A DNA stretch of 32,000 nt from Halogeometricum borinquense DSM 11551. GTDB lineage: Archaea; Halobacteriota; Halobacteria; Halobacteriales; Haloferacaceae. This document shows positions 5,200 to 21,500 of the stretch, piece by piece. The notes beneath the pieces were generated by a model. The model was not told where the DNA came from. It worked only from the letters and a program-made list of their open reading frames with translations, and did not search any database. Each line of letters starts with the position of its first letter. The stretch's first letter is position 1. The position numbers and the translations under genes are program-made. The DNA is taken from the NCBI RefSeq assembly GCF_000172995.2, contig NC_014729.1, positions 2,730,001 through 2,762,000 on the forward strand, given 5' to 3'.

Positions 5200-6006
5200 A
5201 TGATGAAGGTTCTCGTGACCGTAAAAGAGGTCGCAGAAGTCGAAGACGACTTCGAGATAGACGGCCTCGACGTCGACCCGCGGTACCTCGAGTACGACCT
5301 GAACGAGTGGGACGAGTACGCCGTTGAGACGGCGGTCCAACTCGCTGAAGCGTCCGACGAGGACGTCGAAGTCGTCTCCGCAACGATCGGCCCGGAGCGG
5401 AGCGAGGAGACCATCCGCATGGCGCTCGCGAAAGGCGTTGACCGCGCGGTCCGCGTGTGGGACGACGACGTGGAGGCCGCCGAGTTCCTCGACGTGGACT
5501 CGAAAGTCCGCCTCCTCGAAGCCGTCGTCGAAGAAGAAGACCCGGATATCGTCCTCACGGGCGTCCAAGCCCACGACACCGGATTCGGTGCGACGGGTGT
5601 CGCCCTCGCAGACGCCATCGACTTCGAGTGGGGTGCCGTCGTAAACGACCTCGATACCGAGGGCGTCCTCGAAGACGGTGTGGCGCGTGTCCACCGCGAA
5701 CTCGAAGGCGGCGTAGAGGAGCTCACCGAGATCGACCTGCCCGCCGTGTTGACCATCCAGACCGGTATCAACGAACCGCGCTACGCTAGCCTCCGCGGTA
5801 TCCGGCAGGCGCAGTCGAAAGAAATCGCCCCGAAAACGCTCTCCGACCTCGGTCTCGACCACACCGCCGTCGAGAGCGAACTGTTCTTGACCGATATGTA
5901 CGAACCCGAGACGGAATCCGACGCAACGTACTTCGAGGGTGACGCAGGAGAGCAAGCCACCCAACTTGCGACGGCCCTGCGCGAGAAGGGGGTGGGTGCG
6001 GAATGA
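5200..6006 (+). CDS. etfB: Electron transfer flavoprotein, beta subunit
   Basis: MMKVLVTVKEVAEVEDDFEI...EYDLNEWDEYAVETAVQL...LTGVQAHDTGFGATG is the typical EtfB pattern. It overlaps the etfA start by 4 nt. Confidence 0.9.
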   Translation: MMKVLVTVKEVAEVEDDFEIDGLDVDPRYLEYDLNEWDEYAVETAVQLAEASDEDVEVVSATIGPERSEETIRMALAKGVDRAVRVWDDDVEAAEFLDVDSKVRLLEAVVEEEDPDIVLTGVQAHDTGFGATGVALADAIDFEWGAVVNDLDTEGVLEDGVARVHRELEGGVEELTEIDLPAVLTIQTGINEPRYASLRGIRQAQSKEIAPKTLSDLGLDHTAVESELFLTDMYEPETESDATYFEGDAGEQATQLATALREKGVGAE

Positions 6007-6956
6007 GCGATATTCTCGCTGTCGCCGAACACCGCCGCGGCGACCTCCGCGACGTGAGTTACGAACTCGTGACTGCGGGCCGCGAACTTGCCGAGGCGAC
6101 GGGCGGCGACCTGCACCTCGCGATCATCAGCGGAGACGTGGACACGTTCGCCAGTCATCTGAACCTCGACGGCGTCGATACCATCCACACCGTCGAATAC
6201 GGCGAAGAGTTCAACCACGACGTGTACACGCAGGCGGCGTGCGCCCTCACAGAGGAACTGGATCCCCAGTACGTCTTGACGCCGAACTCCGTGAACGGTC
6301 TCGACTACGCACCCGCAGTGGCGAACCGTCTCGGCCTCCCCGTCGTCTCTGACGCAATCGGCATGGCGTTCGATGGCGGACTGACCGTCACGCGCGAGAT
6401 GTACGGATCGAAAGTCGAGACGACGATCGAAGTCGATTCCGAGCGCGCGGTCGTCACCATCCGCGGCGGCGAGTGGGAACCGACCGAGGCGGACGGCGAC
6501 GCCGACGTAGCGGTCTTCGACTTCACGCCCGACGAATCCGAAATCGGCTCCCGTGTCACCGGATTCGAAGAAGTCGGCGGCGGCGACGTGGACATCACCG
6601 AAGCCGACGTACTCGTCTCCGTCGGACGAGGTATCGAAGAAGAGGAGAACATCGAGCTCGTCGAGCGACTCGCCGACGCCCTCGGTGCGACGCTGTCGTC
6701 CTCGCGCCCCATCGTTGACAACGGCTGGTTACCGAAGAACCGGCAGGTCGGTCAGTCCGGGAAAGTCGTCACGCCGGATGTGTACATCGCCGTCGGGATC
6801 TCCGGTGCGGTACAGCACGTCGCCGGGATGAAAGGCTCCGAAACCATCGTCGCCATCAACACGGACCCGAACGCGCCGATCTTCGACATCGCCGACTACG
6901 GCGTCGTCGGCGACCTGTTCGACGTCGTTCCGGAACTCATCGACGAGTTCCAGTAG
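6003..6956 (+). CDS. etfA: Electron transfer flavoprotein, alpha subunit
   Basis: The C-terminal FAD-binding signature is present: [44 protein letters not shown]...[13 protein letters not shown]. The last 30 nt including the TAG stop belong to the 97-bp tandem repeat. Confidence 0.9.
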
Positions 6957-7247
6957 CGGCTTTTTGGTCCAGATTTTTGCGGACGCGAACCTGTGAGCGT
7001 CCGGAAAAAGGTGGTCGCACGTTGTTCCGGAACTCATCGACGAGTTCCAGTAGCGGCTTTTTGGTCCAGATTTTTGCGGACGCGAACCTGTGAGCGTCCG
7101 GAAAAAGGTGGTCGCACGTTGTTCCGGAACTCATCGACGAGTTCCAGTAGCGGCTTTTTGGTCCAGATTTTTGCGGACGCGAACCTGTGAGCGTCCGGAA
7201 AAAGGTGGTCGCACGTTGTTCCGGAACGCATCGACGAGTTCCAGGAG
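6927..7247. repeat. 97-bp tandem repeat: three identical copies (6927-7023, 7024-7120, 7121-7217) plus a diverged partial fourth copy (7218-~7247)
   Basis: Read directly from the sequence. Each unit is the last 30 nt of etfA (gttccggaactcatcgacgagttccagtag) followed by a 67-nt core (cggctttttggtccagatttttgcggacgcgaacctgtgagcgtccggaaaaaggtggtcgcacgtt). The fourth copy has t->g at 7228, and TAG->GAG at 7245. Confidence 0.95.
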
Positions 7248-7315
7248 ACGAAATCGAGTGGTGAGAACGCACCGTTTCGGAACCTCTTTTGTCGCTGCAT
7301 CCTGAGCCACGGGTA

Positions 7316-8158
7316 ATGGAGTATCTGGAGCGTCGGGTGTCGATGGTCGATGACCGCCTCGAAGCGGTCATCGACGCGGTTGATCCACCCGAACTGTCGG
7401 ACGAACTCGCCCACGTGGCGCTCGCAGGCGGTAAGCGCGTCCGCCCAGCGGTGACGATTCTCTCCTGCGAAGCCTGCGGCGGCGACGCCGACGCAGCGGT
7501 TGACTTCGCCGTCGCCATCGAGTTGGTCCACAACGCCTCGTTGGTTATCGACGACATCATCGACCGATCGGACATCCGTCGTGGAACGCCGAGCGCGTGG
7601 GCAGAGTACGGGTACGGACCCTCCATCATCGCCTCGGACGGCCTCCTCGGCGAGGCGTTCGCACTCCTGTCAGTTGACGACCACGCGATGCAGATTGTCG
7701 CGGAGTCGATGGTCGAACTCGGTGAGGGGGAGGCGACGGAGTTGGTTGCACGGCCGACGAACGAAGCCGAGTACATGGAACTTGCCCGACGGAAGACGGG
7801 CGCACTGTTCCGTGCAGCAGCAGAACTCGGAGCCGTTGCCGCCGATGCCGACCCGTTTACGGTTGAAGCGTTCGGCGAGTACGCAGAACGCGTCGGCGTC
7901 GCCTTCCAGATACGCGACGACGTGCTGGATGCGACCGCCGACGCCGACGAACTGGGCAAACCAACCGGGCAGGACGAACAGATGGACCGCCCGTCAGTGG
8001 TGCAGGTGACGGACCTGACGCCTGTCGAAGCGAACCAGCGTGCGCGAGAGCAATCGGATAAAGCACTCGACGCACTCGATACCGCGAAGTTGTCGGAAAC
8101 GGACTCGCTCGGCTACCTCCGTGACCTCGCGGAGTTCGTGGTCGTCCGCGAACGCTGA
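7316..8158 (+). CDS. idsA: Polyprenyl (geranylgeranyl/farnesylgeranyl) diphosphate synthase
   Basis: Internal ATG (MEYLERRV...). First Asp-rich motif LVIDDIIDRSDIRRG and second motif FQIRDDVLD. The symbol is family-level only, and chain length cannot be read from the sequence. Confidence 0.88.
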   Translation: MEYLERRVSMVDDRLEAVIDAVDPPELSDELAHVALAGGKRVRPAVTILSCEACGGDADAAVDFAVAIELVHNASLVIDDIIDRSDIRRGTPSAWAEYGYGPSIIASDGLLGEAFALLSVDDHAMQIVAESMVELGEGEATELVARPTNEAEYMELARRKTGALFRAAAELGAVAADADPFTVEAFGEYAERVGVAFQIRDDVLDATADADELGKPTGQDEQMDRPSVVQVTDLTPVEANQRAREQSDKALDALDTAKLSETDSLGYLRDLAEFVVVRER

Positions 8159-9647: not shown

Positions 9648-10643
9648 ATGATTTCGAAGGGCTGTGAGCAGTGCGCCATGGGAGGGAAAATGGTGCTGTT
9701 CGTCTACGGGTACTGCGATCAGCGCGATTGTTTCTACTGCCCCCTCGGCGAGAACCGTAAGAACGTCACAGACGTGTACGCTAACGAGCGATTGGTCGAG
9801 TCCGACGACGACGTTATCTCCGAGGCCAAGCGGATGGACGCGCTCGGCACGTCCATCACCGGCGGTGAACCGCAAGAGGCTCTCGATAAGACGTGTCACT
9901 ATCTCTCGCTTCTGAAAGACGAGTTCGGAGAGGACCACCACACGCACCTCTACACGGGTATCACGGGCGGCCGCGAGAACATGCGCCGCCTTTCGGAGGC
10001 GGGACTGGACGAGATTCGCTTCCACCCGCCGTACGAACTGTGGGGCGACATGCACGGAACCGAGTGGGAAGAGATACTCTATATTGCCCGCGAGGAAGGT
10101 CTCACGCCCGCGTTCGAGATTCCCGGCATCCGGGCCGAACAGGAGTTCCTCGACTTCCTCGACGAGGGAGCCGCGGAGTTCTGTAACGTCAACGAGTTCG
10201 AGATGAGCGACGGCAACTACCGCCGGATGCAGGAGGAAGGCTTCGAACTCCAAGACGGGCACATGTCGGCCGTTGACGGATCCAAGGACGCTATTCTCGA
10301 CGCGATGGCCGACCACGAACGCGTCTACTTCTGTACCTCTGTCTTCAAAGATGCCGCCCAACACCGCAACCGCCTGAAGCGGATGGCGAAGAACATCCGT
10401 CGTCCGTTCGATGAAGTAACCGACGACGGCACCCTCGTCTACGGGAAAACGTGGGTTACAGAGGACGATTTGCAGGCACTTGGCGTTCCCGAGGAGTTCT
10501 ACACCGTGAAATCCGACCACGTTGAAGTCGCGTGGTGGCTGCTAGAGGAAATGATAGAGGAAGGTGACGTGCCGGAGGGTGAAATCGTCGAGCAGTATCC
10601 CACCGTTAACGGGACTGTCGTCGAACGTACTCCGTTGGCCTGA
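9648..10643 (+). CDS. Radical SAM protein (archaeal COG2108-type)
   Basis: Internal ATG (MISKGCEQCAMGGKMVLFVYGYCDQRDCFYCPLGENRKN). It has a Cys-rich N-terminus with a CxxxCxxC-like cluster plus GGEP. The upstream part of the track ORF is basic and unlikely to be coding. Confidence 0.85.
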   Translation: MISKGCEQCAMGGKMVLFVYGYCDQRDCFYCPLGENRKNVTDVYANERLVESDDDVISEAKRMDALGTSITGGEPQEALDKTCHYLSLLKDEFGEDHHTHLYTGITGGRENMRRLSEAGLDEIRFHPPYELWGDMHGTEWEEILYIAREEGLTPAFEIPGIRAEQEFLDFLDEGAAEFCNVNEFEMSDGNYRRMQEEGFELQDGHMSAVDGSKDAILDAMADHERVYFCTSVFKDAAQHRNRLKRMAKNIRRPFDEVTDDGTLVYGKTWVTEDDLQALGVPEEFYTVKSDHVEVAWWLLEEMIEEGDVPEGEIVEQYPTVNGTVVERTPLA

Positions 10644-10734
10644 CGGCGCTTTTTGGTCCAGCTTTTGCAAGCGAGCGGAGCGAGCGCAGTAAAAGGTGGA
10701 ATGGCACGGTCGTCGAACGTACTCCGTTGGCCTG
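10617..10734. repeat. Exact 27-bp direct duplication of the radical-SAM gene 3' end (10617-10643 and 10708-10734) flanking a 64-nt core related to the etfA repeat core
   Basis: gtcgtcgaacgtactccgttggcctga occurs twice, 91 nt apart. The core 10644-10707 shares CGGC..CTTTTTGGTCCAG.TTTTGC at its 5' side and AAAAGGTGG....GCACG at its 3' side with 6957-7023. Confidence 0.85.
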
Positions 10735-10824
10735 AGTTTGGACATTTGCGATTGGTTTCTGCTGAAATCTCTCGTACTCCGGGAGGCTCACAACCGACCA
10801 GCCGTGACGACAGCCGAGTCCCGG

Positions 10825-20694: not shown

Positions 20695-21062
20695 CTTTCT
20701 ATCTGCGAACAACGTGAGCAGACGAACGTCTGTCGTGTGAGATTGAACCAGCGAGCAACTGACTGAAACGAGGTTGTGAGTAAGGGTCAAGGCTCGTACT
20801 CAGACCTTCTCGCAGAACACGGTTCCTCACGAGCGTTCGCTCCGTTAAGAGCAGTACGAGTGAACGACGACGCGGCAAGGGAACAAATCGCCCGTATACT
20901 TGCCTAACACGGCCGCTATGTCGGGTATCAACGATAGTCACGATGAGTATAGTACTGCCAACTAGCAGAGGCTATATGTATATACAGTAATTGTTAGTCA
21001 ATAACACACATAGACACTGCTGTCGAAACACGTGCCAAAGGCACGGTGGGGGCACACAGCAG

Positions 21063-21221
21063 ATGAAGATACCAACAAATCCGAACGACGACTCGGCAGT
21101 AAAACCAGCGTATCAGTACATCGAGTACGAATCAGGCGATAACACGGTCGCCGTCATTCAGGACTGCGAAAACGAGAGCGCGTGGGTACAATCCACCATC
21201 TCGGAACCCGTCACACAGTGA
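21063..21221 (+). CDS. Small acidic protein (52 aa), function unknown
   Basis: ATG at 21063 (MKIPTNPNDDSAVKPAYQYIEYESGDNTVAVIQDCENESAWVQSTISEPVTQ). The composition is halophile-like. The track start at 20991 is TTG and lies in AT-rich sequence. Confidence 0.45.
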   Translation: MKIPTNPNDDSAVKPAYQYIEYESGDNTVAVIQDCENESAWVQSTISEPVTQ

Positions 21222-21287
21222 GTTACGGGATTTCGATGGGGCCGCGAGTTCAGATCCGAGGGTGGTCCGGTGCGGCGTCGAATCGAC

Positions 21288-21500
21288 CTACTCGGAACCC
21301 GAGCGATTGCGGTAGACCGAACGCGTTACGACGGGGGCTTCAGGGTACTTCCGACAGTACTCCTCGCGCGTCGTTACCGAACCGGTGCAGTCGCGGCCGG
21401 TCAAGTGAGGGTCTTTGACCGACTCGACCAAACAACCGCACTCGCGGCAGGCGACGTAGTGAACGTCAGCGATTCGGTTGGGAGGAGGCGAGTCCTGCAT
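21288..21500 (-). CDS. Small Cys-rich (zinc-finger-like) protein, 70 aa
   Basis: ATG start. Four to five Cys residues: C-x2-C-x1-C ... C ... C (VACRECGCLVES...GRDCTGS...EEYCRKY). Convergent with the 52-aa gene. Confidence 0.45.
   Translation of the reverse strand: MQDSPPPNRIADVHYVACRECGCLVESVKDPHLTGRDCTGSVTTREEYCRKYPEAPVVTRSVYRNRSGSE

Follow-up and report, generated by a model that had tools for sequence, protein, structure and literature searches.

Introduction

The mycobacterial interspersed repetitive units (MIRUs) described by Supply and colleagues in 1997 are reportedly intergenic tandem units of 46-101 bp, with ends overlapping the stop and start codons of the flanking genes. A comparable arrangement is found in the haloarchaeon Halogeometricum borinquense DSM 11551, in the stretch of 32,000 nt analyzed here, hereafter the window (contig NC_014729.1, forward strand, positions 2,730,001 to 2,762,000; assembly GCF_000172995.2), where three identical 97-bp units lie between the electron transfer flavoprotein gene etfA and idsA, encoding a short-chain isoprenyl diphosphate synthase. 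Like MIRUs, these units of about 100 bp stand head to tail between two genes, take in the stop codon of the upstream gene and differ in number between strains, which slippage or unequal exchange would explain. MIRUs, however, form one family at about 40 loci and are translated as small coupled open reading frames (ORFs), whereas here the unit consists of the last 35 nt of the host gene and a hairpin element, and its 97 nt are not a multiple of three. According to a survey, most satellites of Halobacteria lie in coding sequence and have units whose length is divisible by three (PMC6749651). With head-to-tail units longer than 10 nt and a copy number varying between related strains, the array itself is an ordinary young variable-number tandem repeat (VNTR) from unequal exchange, and its building block is a conserved hairpin adjacent to a stop codon together with a duplicate of the host gene end, present at two genes and in two genera. 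We consider it probable that the array is a very recent expansion of a locus-bound cassette around a probable terminator, by unequal recombination or slippage between the flanking repeats.

The hairpin element itself resembles several other described systems, none of which it matches in full. In Haloferax volcanii, T stretches are the dominant intergenic terminator, reporter termination reached 95%, and hairpins precede 503 mapped 3' ends (PMC7237163). The element shares with such intrinsic terminators a T5 tract just past the stop codon, a stable hairpin, a T5C tract on the opposite strand and, in some species, a placement between convergent genes; ordinary terminators are nonetheless not about 95% conserved between genera nor flanked by a gene-end duplicate, and termination at the element is predicted. 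Repetitive extragenic palindromic sequences (REPs) and bacterial interspersed mosaic elements (BIMEs) are likewise short imperfect palindromes just past stop codons, in either orientation and sometimes in tandem, and the element falls within this description as an imperfect extragenic palindrome in the range of 35-55 nt that is found by stop codons in either orientation (inverted at H. volcanii etfA). REPs, however, occur in hundreds of copies, are tied to REP-associated tyrosine transposases (RAYTs) and have no gene-end duplicate of about 36 nt, whereas here two loci are known, with no transposase nearby. MITEs (miniature inverted-repeat transposable elements) differ in that the element is without terminal inverted repeats and is accompanied by repeats of about 36 nt rather than by short abutting target duplications. 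Attachment sites of the attL/attR type are also direct repeats whose outer boundary is the end of a target gene that is kept intact, but in this case only about 60 nt lie between the repeats, they are identical at two targets, and no integrase accompanies them.

Structure and Copy Number of the Array

Self-comparison at period 97 was free of mismatches over 6927-7217, which corresponds to three identical units, and the partial fourth copy (7218-7247) deviated at just two positions, 7228 (T>G) and 7245 (T>G, by which the stop TAG becomes GAG). Tandem Repeats Finder (TRF) reported a period of 97, 3.3 copies, 99% matches and a score of 632, and the 67-nt core occurred three times with 0 mismatches, against 0.00 expected in shuffled sequences. 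The original prediction, a perfect threefold 97-bp array with a diverged partial fourth copy, was therefore upheld by self-comparison, TRF and shuffles alike. Its unit and period stood as well, while its repeat boundary did not: homology begins at 6922, 5 nt earlier than claimed (ACGTC in the gene vs. ACGTT in copies 2-4), giving a direct repeat (DR) of 35 rather than 30 nt, with weaker homology about 4 nt further upstream across a 1-nt indel (TCG-A vs. TCGCA). As to the fourth copy, the duplication and its two substitutions were confirmed, but in light of the comparative data presented below it is best read as the old resident gene end displaced downstream, rather than as a copy that diverged.

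Four direct repeats, DR1 to DR4, thus alternate with three copies of the element (Table 1). At three diagnostic sites, DR1 reads C/T/T, DR2 and DR3 read T/T/T, and DR4 reads T/G/G. The internal repeats are consequently hybrids with the 5' part of DR4 and the 3' part of DR1, as expected from unequal exchange or slippage in a one-unit allele. The cassette would comprise the last 35 nt or so of etfA with the stop codon, the conserved 54-nt element and the older, displaced gene-end copy. In a one-unit allele, the two flanking repeats could recombine by unequal homologous exchange, or slippage could occur between them during replication; either would yield a two-unit allele, whose internal repeat would be a hybrid of the two parental repeats and whose longer homology could then lead to a third unit; the reverse of the same process would delete units.

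The copy number of the cassette differs within the species. The spacer between etfA and idsA measures 359 nt with three units in DSM 11551, 165 nt with one unit in an H. borinquense genome 0.2% divergent from the window (GCA_004150395.1, L008), and 68 nt with zero units in another that is 2.3% divergent (SRR26441317, L011), while Halogeometricum limi carries at least two units of 99 nt with sequence variants of its own. The comparison of etfA-idsA regions of relatives, which had been proposed together with the prediction, therefore revealed differences in length between strains and between species and substantiated the suggested copy-number variability, with 0, 1 or 3 units among H. borinquense strains and no fewer than 2 in H. 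limi. The suggested recent amplification likewise found support in the three identical units, the one-unit strain and the hybrid internal repeats: the expansion must be very recent because no substitution separates the units and a one-unit relative exists at 0.2% divergence. In the H. limi assembly (GCA_900115785.1; L012 3515-3524), a scaffold gap of 10 N falls exactly at a unit boundary.

The array is real and not an assembly artefact, and at least two units are supported by reads. Contigs encoding identical EtfA or IdsA were compared in Logan assemblies (k = 31), and in five read sets (SRR9434877, SRR017590, SRR6822889/90/91) the etfA contig stops at the window equivalent of 6956 and the idsA contig begins at 7198. 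In a de Bruijn check, the three-unit sequence had branching 31-mers at exactly these breakpoints, and since such branching needs at least two units, at least two are present in all five read sets. An Illumina draft of the same strain (GCA_000337855.1) does have one unit, as it should if the threefold array were an error of the finished genome. Such an error is nevertheless barely credible, considering that contigs from five independent read sets break where only the internal hybrid repeat makes branching 31-mers, that the one-unit allele has none, and that assemblers usually collapse such loops rather than expand them. The draft most likely represents a collapsed repeat loop.

Other explanations of the repeated structure were discarded. 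A coding function finds no basis in the 65-aa ORF over the units (6993..7190), for which no similar called protein was found among 5.8 billion and whose frame and length, by inspection, are not kept in other taxa. Translation of the later copies by read-through or ribosome hopping was rejected because the 97-nt unit shifts the frame and the copies encode the same peptide anyway. A CRISPR array was dismissed as well, as it is the "spacer" that would be constant here, while the "repeat" corresponds to the local gene end and differs between loci. Since DR4 has GAG where the stop codon stood, EtfA of this strain would be lengthened by 23 residues if DR1 and DR4 were joined by deletion, up to a TAA overlapping the idsA ATG (TAATG); clean loss of the cassette would therefore now be harder than in H. 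limi, where TAG is preserved in the terminal copy.

The Hairpin Element and Its Probable Function

The element reads TTTTTGGTCCAGATTTTTGC-hairpin-GGAAAAAGGTGG and begins 4 nt past the etfA stop codon. Its hairpin, TTTTTGCGGACGC-N10-GCGTCCGGAAAAA, has 13 stem positions with one G.G mismatch and spans 6974-7009 in the first copy; the earlier description of 13 positions with one mismatch and a T5/A5 closure was accurate. The fold energy of this copy is -21.3 kcal/mol (z = -3.1). Nine elements align without gaps over 54 nt, with 93% of the stem cells paired; two stem pairs change on both sides between the elements of the etfA type and those of the radical-SAM type described below, and four more stem pairs are changed in the element of a Haloferax sp. 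contig (L137), whose stem was not put in register by MAFFT, so that pairs were counted by script on an ungapped alignment. Judging from these compensated changes, the hairpin is maintained. Between Halogeometricum and Haloferax the element is identical at 59 of 62 positions while the DNA of etfBA is only 78% identical (P about 2e-4), a conservation that may point to horizontal spread or to some function of a more specific kind.

Rfam returned no match for window positions 6700-7500 at E values up to 10, nor for six related loci at E values up to 1. A genome-contig scan with the degenerate stem-loop pattern GGACGCGANCCNGNGNGCGTCC listed matches that were chance matches in GC-rich bacteria, except that of Haloferax prahovense (L102). 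A metagenome scan with the 21-mer GGTCCAGATTTTTGCGGACGC found one contig and missed a contig of the Joint Genome Institute (JGI; L150) that has the 21-mer, and was therefore not exhaustive. The viral, phage and plasmid collections gave no haloarchaeal or related match to the element, and seven viral pattern matches were attributed to chance, having a different GC content and no hairpin. Neither Rfam nor the searchable literature contained the element family and its gene-end duplication, a search with the motif string giving only unrelated primers. These hairpin elements adjacent to stop codons, behind each of which the end of its gene is present a second time, apparently constitute a small, undescribed family.

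In H. borinquense, T5 tracts lie on the plus strand at 6961-6965 and 6974-6978 and recur in each unit, so that each unit adds two T5 tracts on this strand and one T5C on the minus strand, before the same hairpin. The coding strand thus carries a stretch of at least five T shortly after the stop codon, and such runs are rare, as the plus strand of the window has 12 of them, six in the array. In Halogeometricum rufum, Halogeometricum sp. S1BR25-6 and the metagenome contig L150, etfA and trkA converge on the element from either side. These features suggest that the element is a probable T-tract/hairpin transcription terminator or insulator after etfBA, possibly bidirectional given the T5C on the minus strand before the same hairpin. 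The earlier suggestion that the array might affect termination is plausible. The zero-unit strain L011 has no T5 tract in its 68-nt spacer, so that the probable role of the cassette is to shield idsA from transcripts running on from etfBA. The two extra units of DSM 11551 would probably represent mostly redundancy, adding terminators and 194 nt before the idsA promoter with little or no phenotypic effect. The part of the H. volcanii 3'-end tables that was available lists no plus-strand site between 2568899 and 2571013, coordinates on which etfA was not placed, in a species that does not have this orientation of the element.

Conservation of this kind could also be explained if the unit were a functional RNA, either 3'-UTR-derived or an antisense small RNA pairing with the etfA mRNA through the copied gene end, or a protein-binding site such as a palindromic operator, with copy number tuning the dose. 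Conservation of the ends and of the hairpin is indeed strong, changes in the stem being compensated, the downstream copy follows the gene end of each lineage as if its identity mattered, and the minus strand of the unit folds well (z = -2.76). We regard this explanation as rather improbable, given the lack of an Rfam match, of a conserved ORF or similar protein in the collection searched above and, on inspection, of a convincing promoter consensus within the unit, as well as the absence of the element from close relatives that are healthy (H. volcanii, H. mediterranei and strain L011). The covariation, moreover, derives from few lineages, and does not separate RNA from DNA structure.

Distribution and Origin of the Cassette

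The architecture observed at etfA (gene end, short variable spacer, element, junction TCGYA, second gene end) is also present in H. limi, in decayed form in H. rufum, and in H. prahovense (L102), a Haloferax metagenome contig (L136) and Haloferax sp. L137. The proposal of an old gene-end duplication was thereby corroborated, the same arrangement recurring in two further Halogeometricum species (degenerate in H. rufum) and in three genomes of Haloferax. In Halogeometricum pallidum, Halogeometricum sp. S1BR25-6 and contig L150, the element is present and the second gene end absent, and no element in this orientation accompanies etfA in H. volcanii, H. mediterranei and Halogranum rubrum. In each lineage the downstream copy bears the gene-end variants of that same lineage. 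The etfBA genes of L136 are 97.9% identical to those of H. volcanii, and the alignment of the two reveals one clean 104-nt insertion, which is the cassette. The downstream copy of L136 and its flank correspond to the true gene end and 3' flank of H. volcanii, while the functional etfA end (last 36 nt) differs from H. volcanii at six positions, all third codon positions, and matches H. prahovense. As L136 equals H. volcanii with a clean insertion, gain or loss of the whole cassette in one piece is possible.

In Haloferax sp. L137 (2483-2545) and in H. rufum (L014 3460-3535) the element is split after TTTTTTGGTCCA and before CAGA by an insertion of 50-70 nt, containing two extra GC-rich hairpins and repeated TTCGCTC-like motifs; motifs similar to these are also seen in the long etfA-idsA spacers of H. 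volcanii and Halogranum. A weak minus-strand match of the covariance model indicates that the etfA flank of H. volcanii holds an inverted element of the same kind, abutting the stop codon. The etfA 3' flank reads AACC-TTTT-GC..GGGCGGCC-TGA-GGCCGCCC..GGC-AAAA in H. volcanii (L145 2455-2510) and Halogranum rubrum (L152 2455-2500), and the stem of the inverted element shows a compensated G/C swap between Haloferax and Halogranum (GGGCGGCC/GGCCGCCC vs. GGGCCGCC/GGCGGCCC).

A second locus was found by BLAST of the core against the haloarchaeal DNA collected in this work. A radical-SAM/DUF8061 gene located 3.4 kb downstream of the array ends at 10643 and is followed by CGGCGC, the element and a gene-end copy. 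In H. borinquense the hairpin of this element is no longer stable (fold z = 0.05), whereas the orthologous Haloferax loci have well-folded elements with a different, compensated stem (CGGAGT/ACTCCG); L136 holds one unit at this locus, and H. prahovense has two, followed by a terminal repeat. Besides the locus at etfA, this was the only one detected by the covariance model in the 115 kb of haloarchaeal DNA searched.

The occurrence of the same element at two unrelated genes, each with a duplicate of about 36 nt of its own gene end, raises the question of its mobility. The 54-nt element could be a non-autonomous mobile element, inserting just after or about 36 nt before stop codons with a target duplication that, at about 36 nt, would be unusually long, or could spread by homing-like gene conversion through a gene-end homology arm, the array then resulting from repeated insertion or from later unequal exchange. 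The clean 104-nt gain in L136 with respect to H. volcanii, with its left boundary no more than 20 nt from the start of the repeat, an identity across genera of 95% vs. 78% for the adjacent genes, the wholly different spacers of the two H. prahovense radical-SAM units and the patchy distribution among close relatives are all in agreement with this explanation. A target duplication of such length would have a precedent in the 55 bp reported for ISH2 in Halobacterium (PMC7002104). We nonetheless consider mobility possible but unlikely. The element was confined to two loci in the DNA searched, both of them occupied in both genera, which vertical inheritance explains equally well; plasmid, phage and viral collections held no haloarchaeal match; and the spacer between the left repeat and the element varies from 4 to 27 nt, which a true target-site duplication would not show. 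Among the 10 large ORFs of the window that were scanned, none encoded an integrase, transposase or reverse transcriptase, and by inspection the element has no terminal inverted repeats, since its left end (GGC TTTTT GGTCC) and the reverse complement of its right end (CACC TTTTT CCGGA) share only the T5 run and the palindrome is internal.

The cassette might in particular, although we advance this doubtfully, be a minimal selfish homing unit, in which a terminator-like hairpin of about 55 nt is equipped with a copy of the last 36 nt or so of the gene as right arm or guide. Wherever a break or mismatch in an unoccupied gene end is repaired with an occupied allele as template, the element would be copied in, either within a polyploid cell or after mating between species, and could spread among strains, species and even genera, the same repeats driving expansion and contraction. 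The 104-nt gain in an H. volcanii-like genome, the identity between genera and the match of the downstream copy to the local gene would then be explained together.

Direct repeats ending at the 3' end of a target gene are typical of archaeal integrated elements. The repeats could instead be duplications of the attL/attR type, left by a site-specific integrative element (virus or plasmid) that targeted the 3' end of the gene and of which decay has spared about 60 nt. In appearance the repeat consists of two arms and a spacer (CCGGAACTC-ATCGAC-GAGTTCCAG), and repeat-bounded elements that target protein genes have been noted in Halobacterium (PMC7002104). Unrelated repeats at two target genes around the same internal 54 nt are, however, impossible for a single integrase that recognizes a single attachment site; the repeats are no more than 58-69 nt apart, the window ORFs scanned include no integrase, and viral, phage and plasmid records showed no similarity. 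We therefore hold such an origin to be very improbable. A reading akin to diversity-generating retroelements, with a variable region, a hairpin and a template repeat, was rejected, there being no reverse transcriptase among the window ORFs scanned and the differences not being adenine-specific.

Some observations weigh against the expansion of a locus-bound terminator cassette. The terminator role is deduced from sequence alone, and the cross-genus conservation of the element (59/62 vs. 78%) exceeds what would be expected for a simple terminator. The draft assembly of the same strain has one unit, which we attribute to probable collapse of the repeat. At both loci the repeats of about 36 nt end exactly at the stop codon, an outcome not expected from random slippage. 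In H. prahovense, the two radical-SAM units have unrelated 9-nt spacers between near-identical elements and repeats, a pattern awkward for tandem duplication followed by neutral drift, and in H. borinquense the hairpin of the radical-SAM element is lost, yet the gene-end copy is identical at 27 of 27 positions.

Flanking Genes and Other Repeats

The coordinates of the features in the window are given in Table 1. The gene identities assumed at the outset for etfA and idsA agree with the Pfam matches of the encoded proteins (ETF/ETF_alpha and polyprenyl_synt), and a C-terminal pattern F[DE]VVP[EA]L..[EQ]F.* is common to 120 EtfA homologues. In H. volcanii, the function of short-chain isoprenyl diphosphate synthase is assigned to HVO_2725 (idsA1; PMC8305020). 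A TATA-like CTTTTG is centred about 27 nt upstream of the idsA ATG, and from the usual haloarchaeal leaderless-promoter geometry we infer that 7276..7291 is the idsA promoter. A perfect palindrome, GTTCCGGAAC (6927-6936, codons VPEL), opens the repeat, and the same 10-mer stands just upstream of the TATA-like box of idsA in Halogeometricum species, including L014 and L015 (GTTTCGGAAC in H. borinquense and H. limi; window 7274-7283).

Table 1. Features of the etfA-idsA and radical-SAM loci, in positions of the window
Feature	Position	Strand	Evidence or remarks
etfB, electron transfer flavoprotein beta subunit	5200..6006	+	ORF; Pfam PF01012 on identical gene in contig L001
etfA	6003..6956	+	ORF; Pfam ETF/ETF_alpha match; protein 100% identical to EtfA of DSM 11551
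DR1, functional etfA end incl. stop TAG	6922..6956	+	Diagnostic C6926, T6937, T6954
Variable spacer CGGC, stop codon to element	6957..6960	+	4-27 nt, unrelated sequence in other taxa
Element copy 1, 54 nt: T5-GGTCCAGA-T5-G-stem(7)-loop(10)-stem(7)-G-A5-GGTGG	6961..7014	+	Covariance model 83.6 bits
Junction TCGC	7015..7018	+	Common to DR-bearing etfA cassettes; TCGT in L136, hence TCGY
DR2, hybrid	7019..7053	+	5' base as DR4 (T7023), 3' bases as DR1 (CTC, TAG)
Element copy 2	7058..7111	+	Core repeat and covariance-model match
DR3, hybrid	7116..7150	+	Identical to DR2
Element copy 3	7155..7208	+	Core repeat and covariance-model match
DR4, terminal older gene-end copy	7213..7247	+	7228 G; 7245 G, stop lost as GAG; also present in one-unit alleles L001, L008
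Putative idsA promoter region, CGGAACC TCTTTTG	7276..7291	+	Conserved across Halogeometricum
idsA, short-chain isoprenyl diphosphate synthase	7316..8158	+	Pfam PF00348 (polyprenyl_synt)
Repeat copy a, last 36 nt of radical-SAM/DUF8061 gene incl. TGA	10608..10643	+	
Degenerate element TTTTTGGTCCAGCTTTTGC...AAAAGGTGG	10650..10699	+	Covariance model 29.6 bits, E = 6e-5
Repeat copy b, gene-end copy	10700..10735	+	Last 27 nt incl. TGA identical; 3 mismatches in first 9 nt

The spacer between etfA and idsA differs in other respects among relatives. A trkA-like gene on the opposite strand occupies it in H. rufum (L014 3649-5337), Halogeometricum sp. S1BR25-6 (L144 2559 onwards) and the metagenome relative (L150 2497 onwards), and in the last of these its stop codon falls within the hairpin region of the element. 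The Haloferax contig L136 (7080-7100) is without 66 nt of the H. volcanii etfA-idsA spacer (L145 2575-2640), the missing part lying between short direct repeats CTCNCTCAC, a further sign of the unusual plasticity of this spacer. Elsewhere in the window, a third pair of direct repeats (21190-21301; 21 nt, 86% identical, spacing 91) straddles the stop of a 76-aa ORF (20991..21221), and its downstream copy would encode a similar peptide (..ESTYSEP.. vs. ..QSTISEP..); the intervening DNA has no match to the element model and no unusual folding.

Biological Significance

If the expansion reading is true, the boundary of a haloarchaeal housekeeping operon carries a small, conserved and portable module of terminator type, which the flanking gene-end duplicates would make gainable, losable and amplifiable by ordinary recombination. 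The array would then serve as a natural copy-number marker for typing H. borinquense strains, and the alleles with zero, one and three units as a natural test case for the insulation of neighbouring archaeal genes by T-tracts and hairpins. The module may moreover be an example of non-coding DNA spreading by recombination alone in polyploid, promiscuously recombining archaea.

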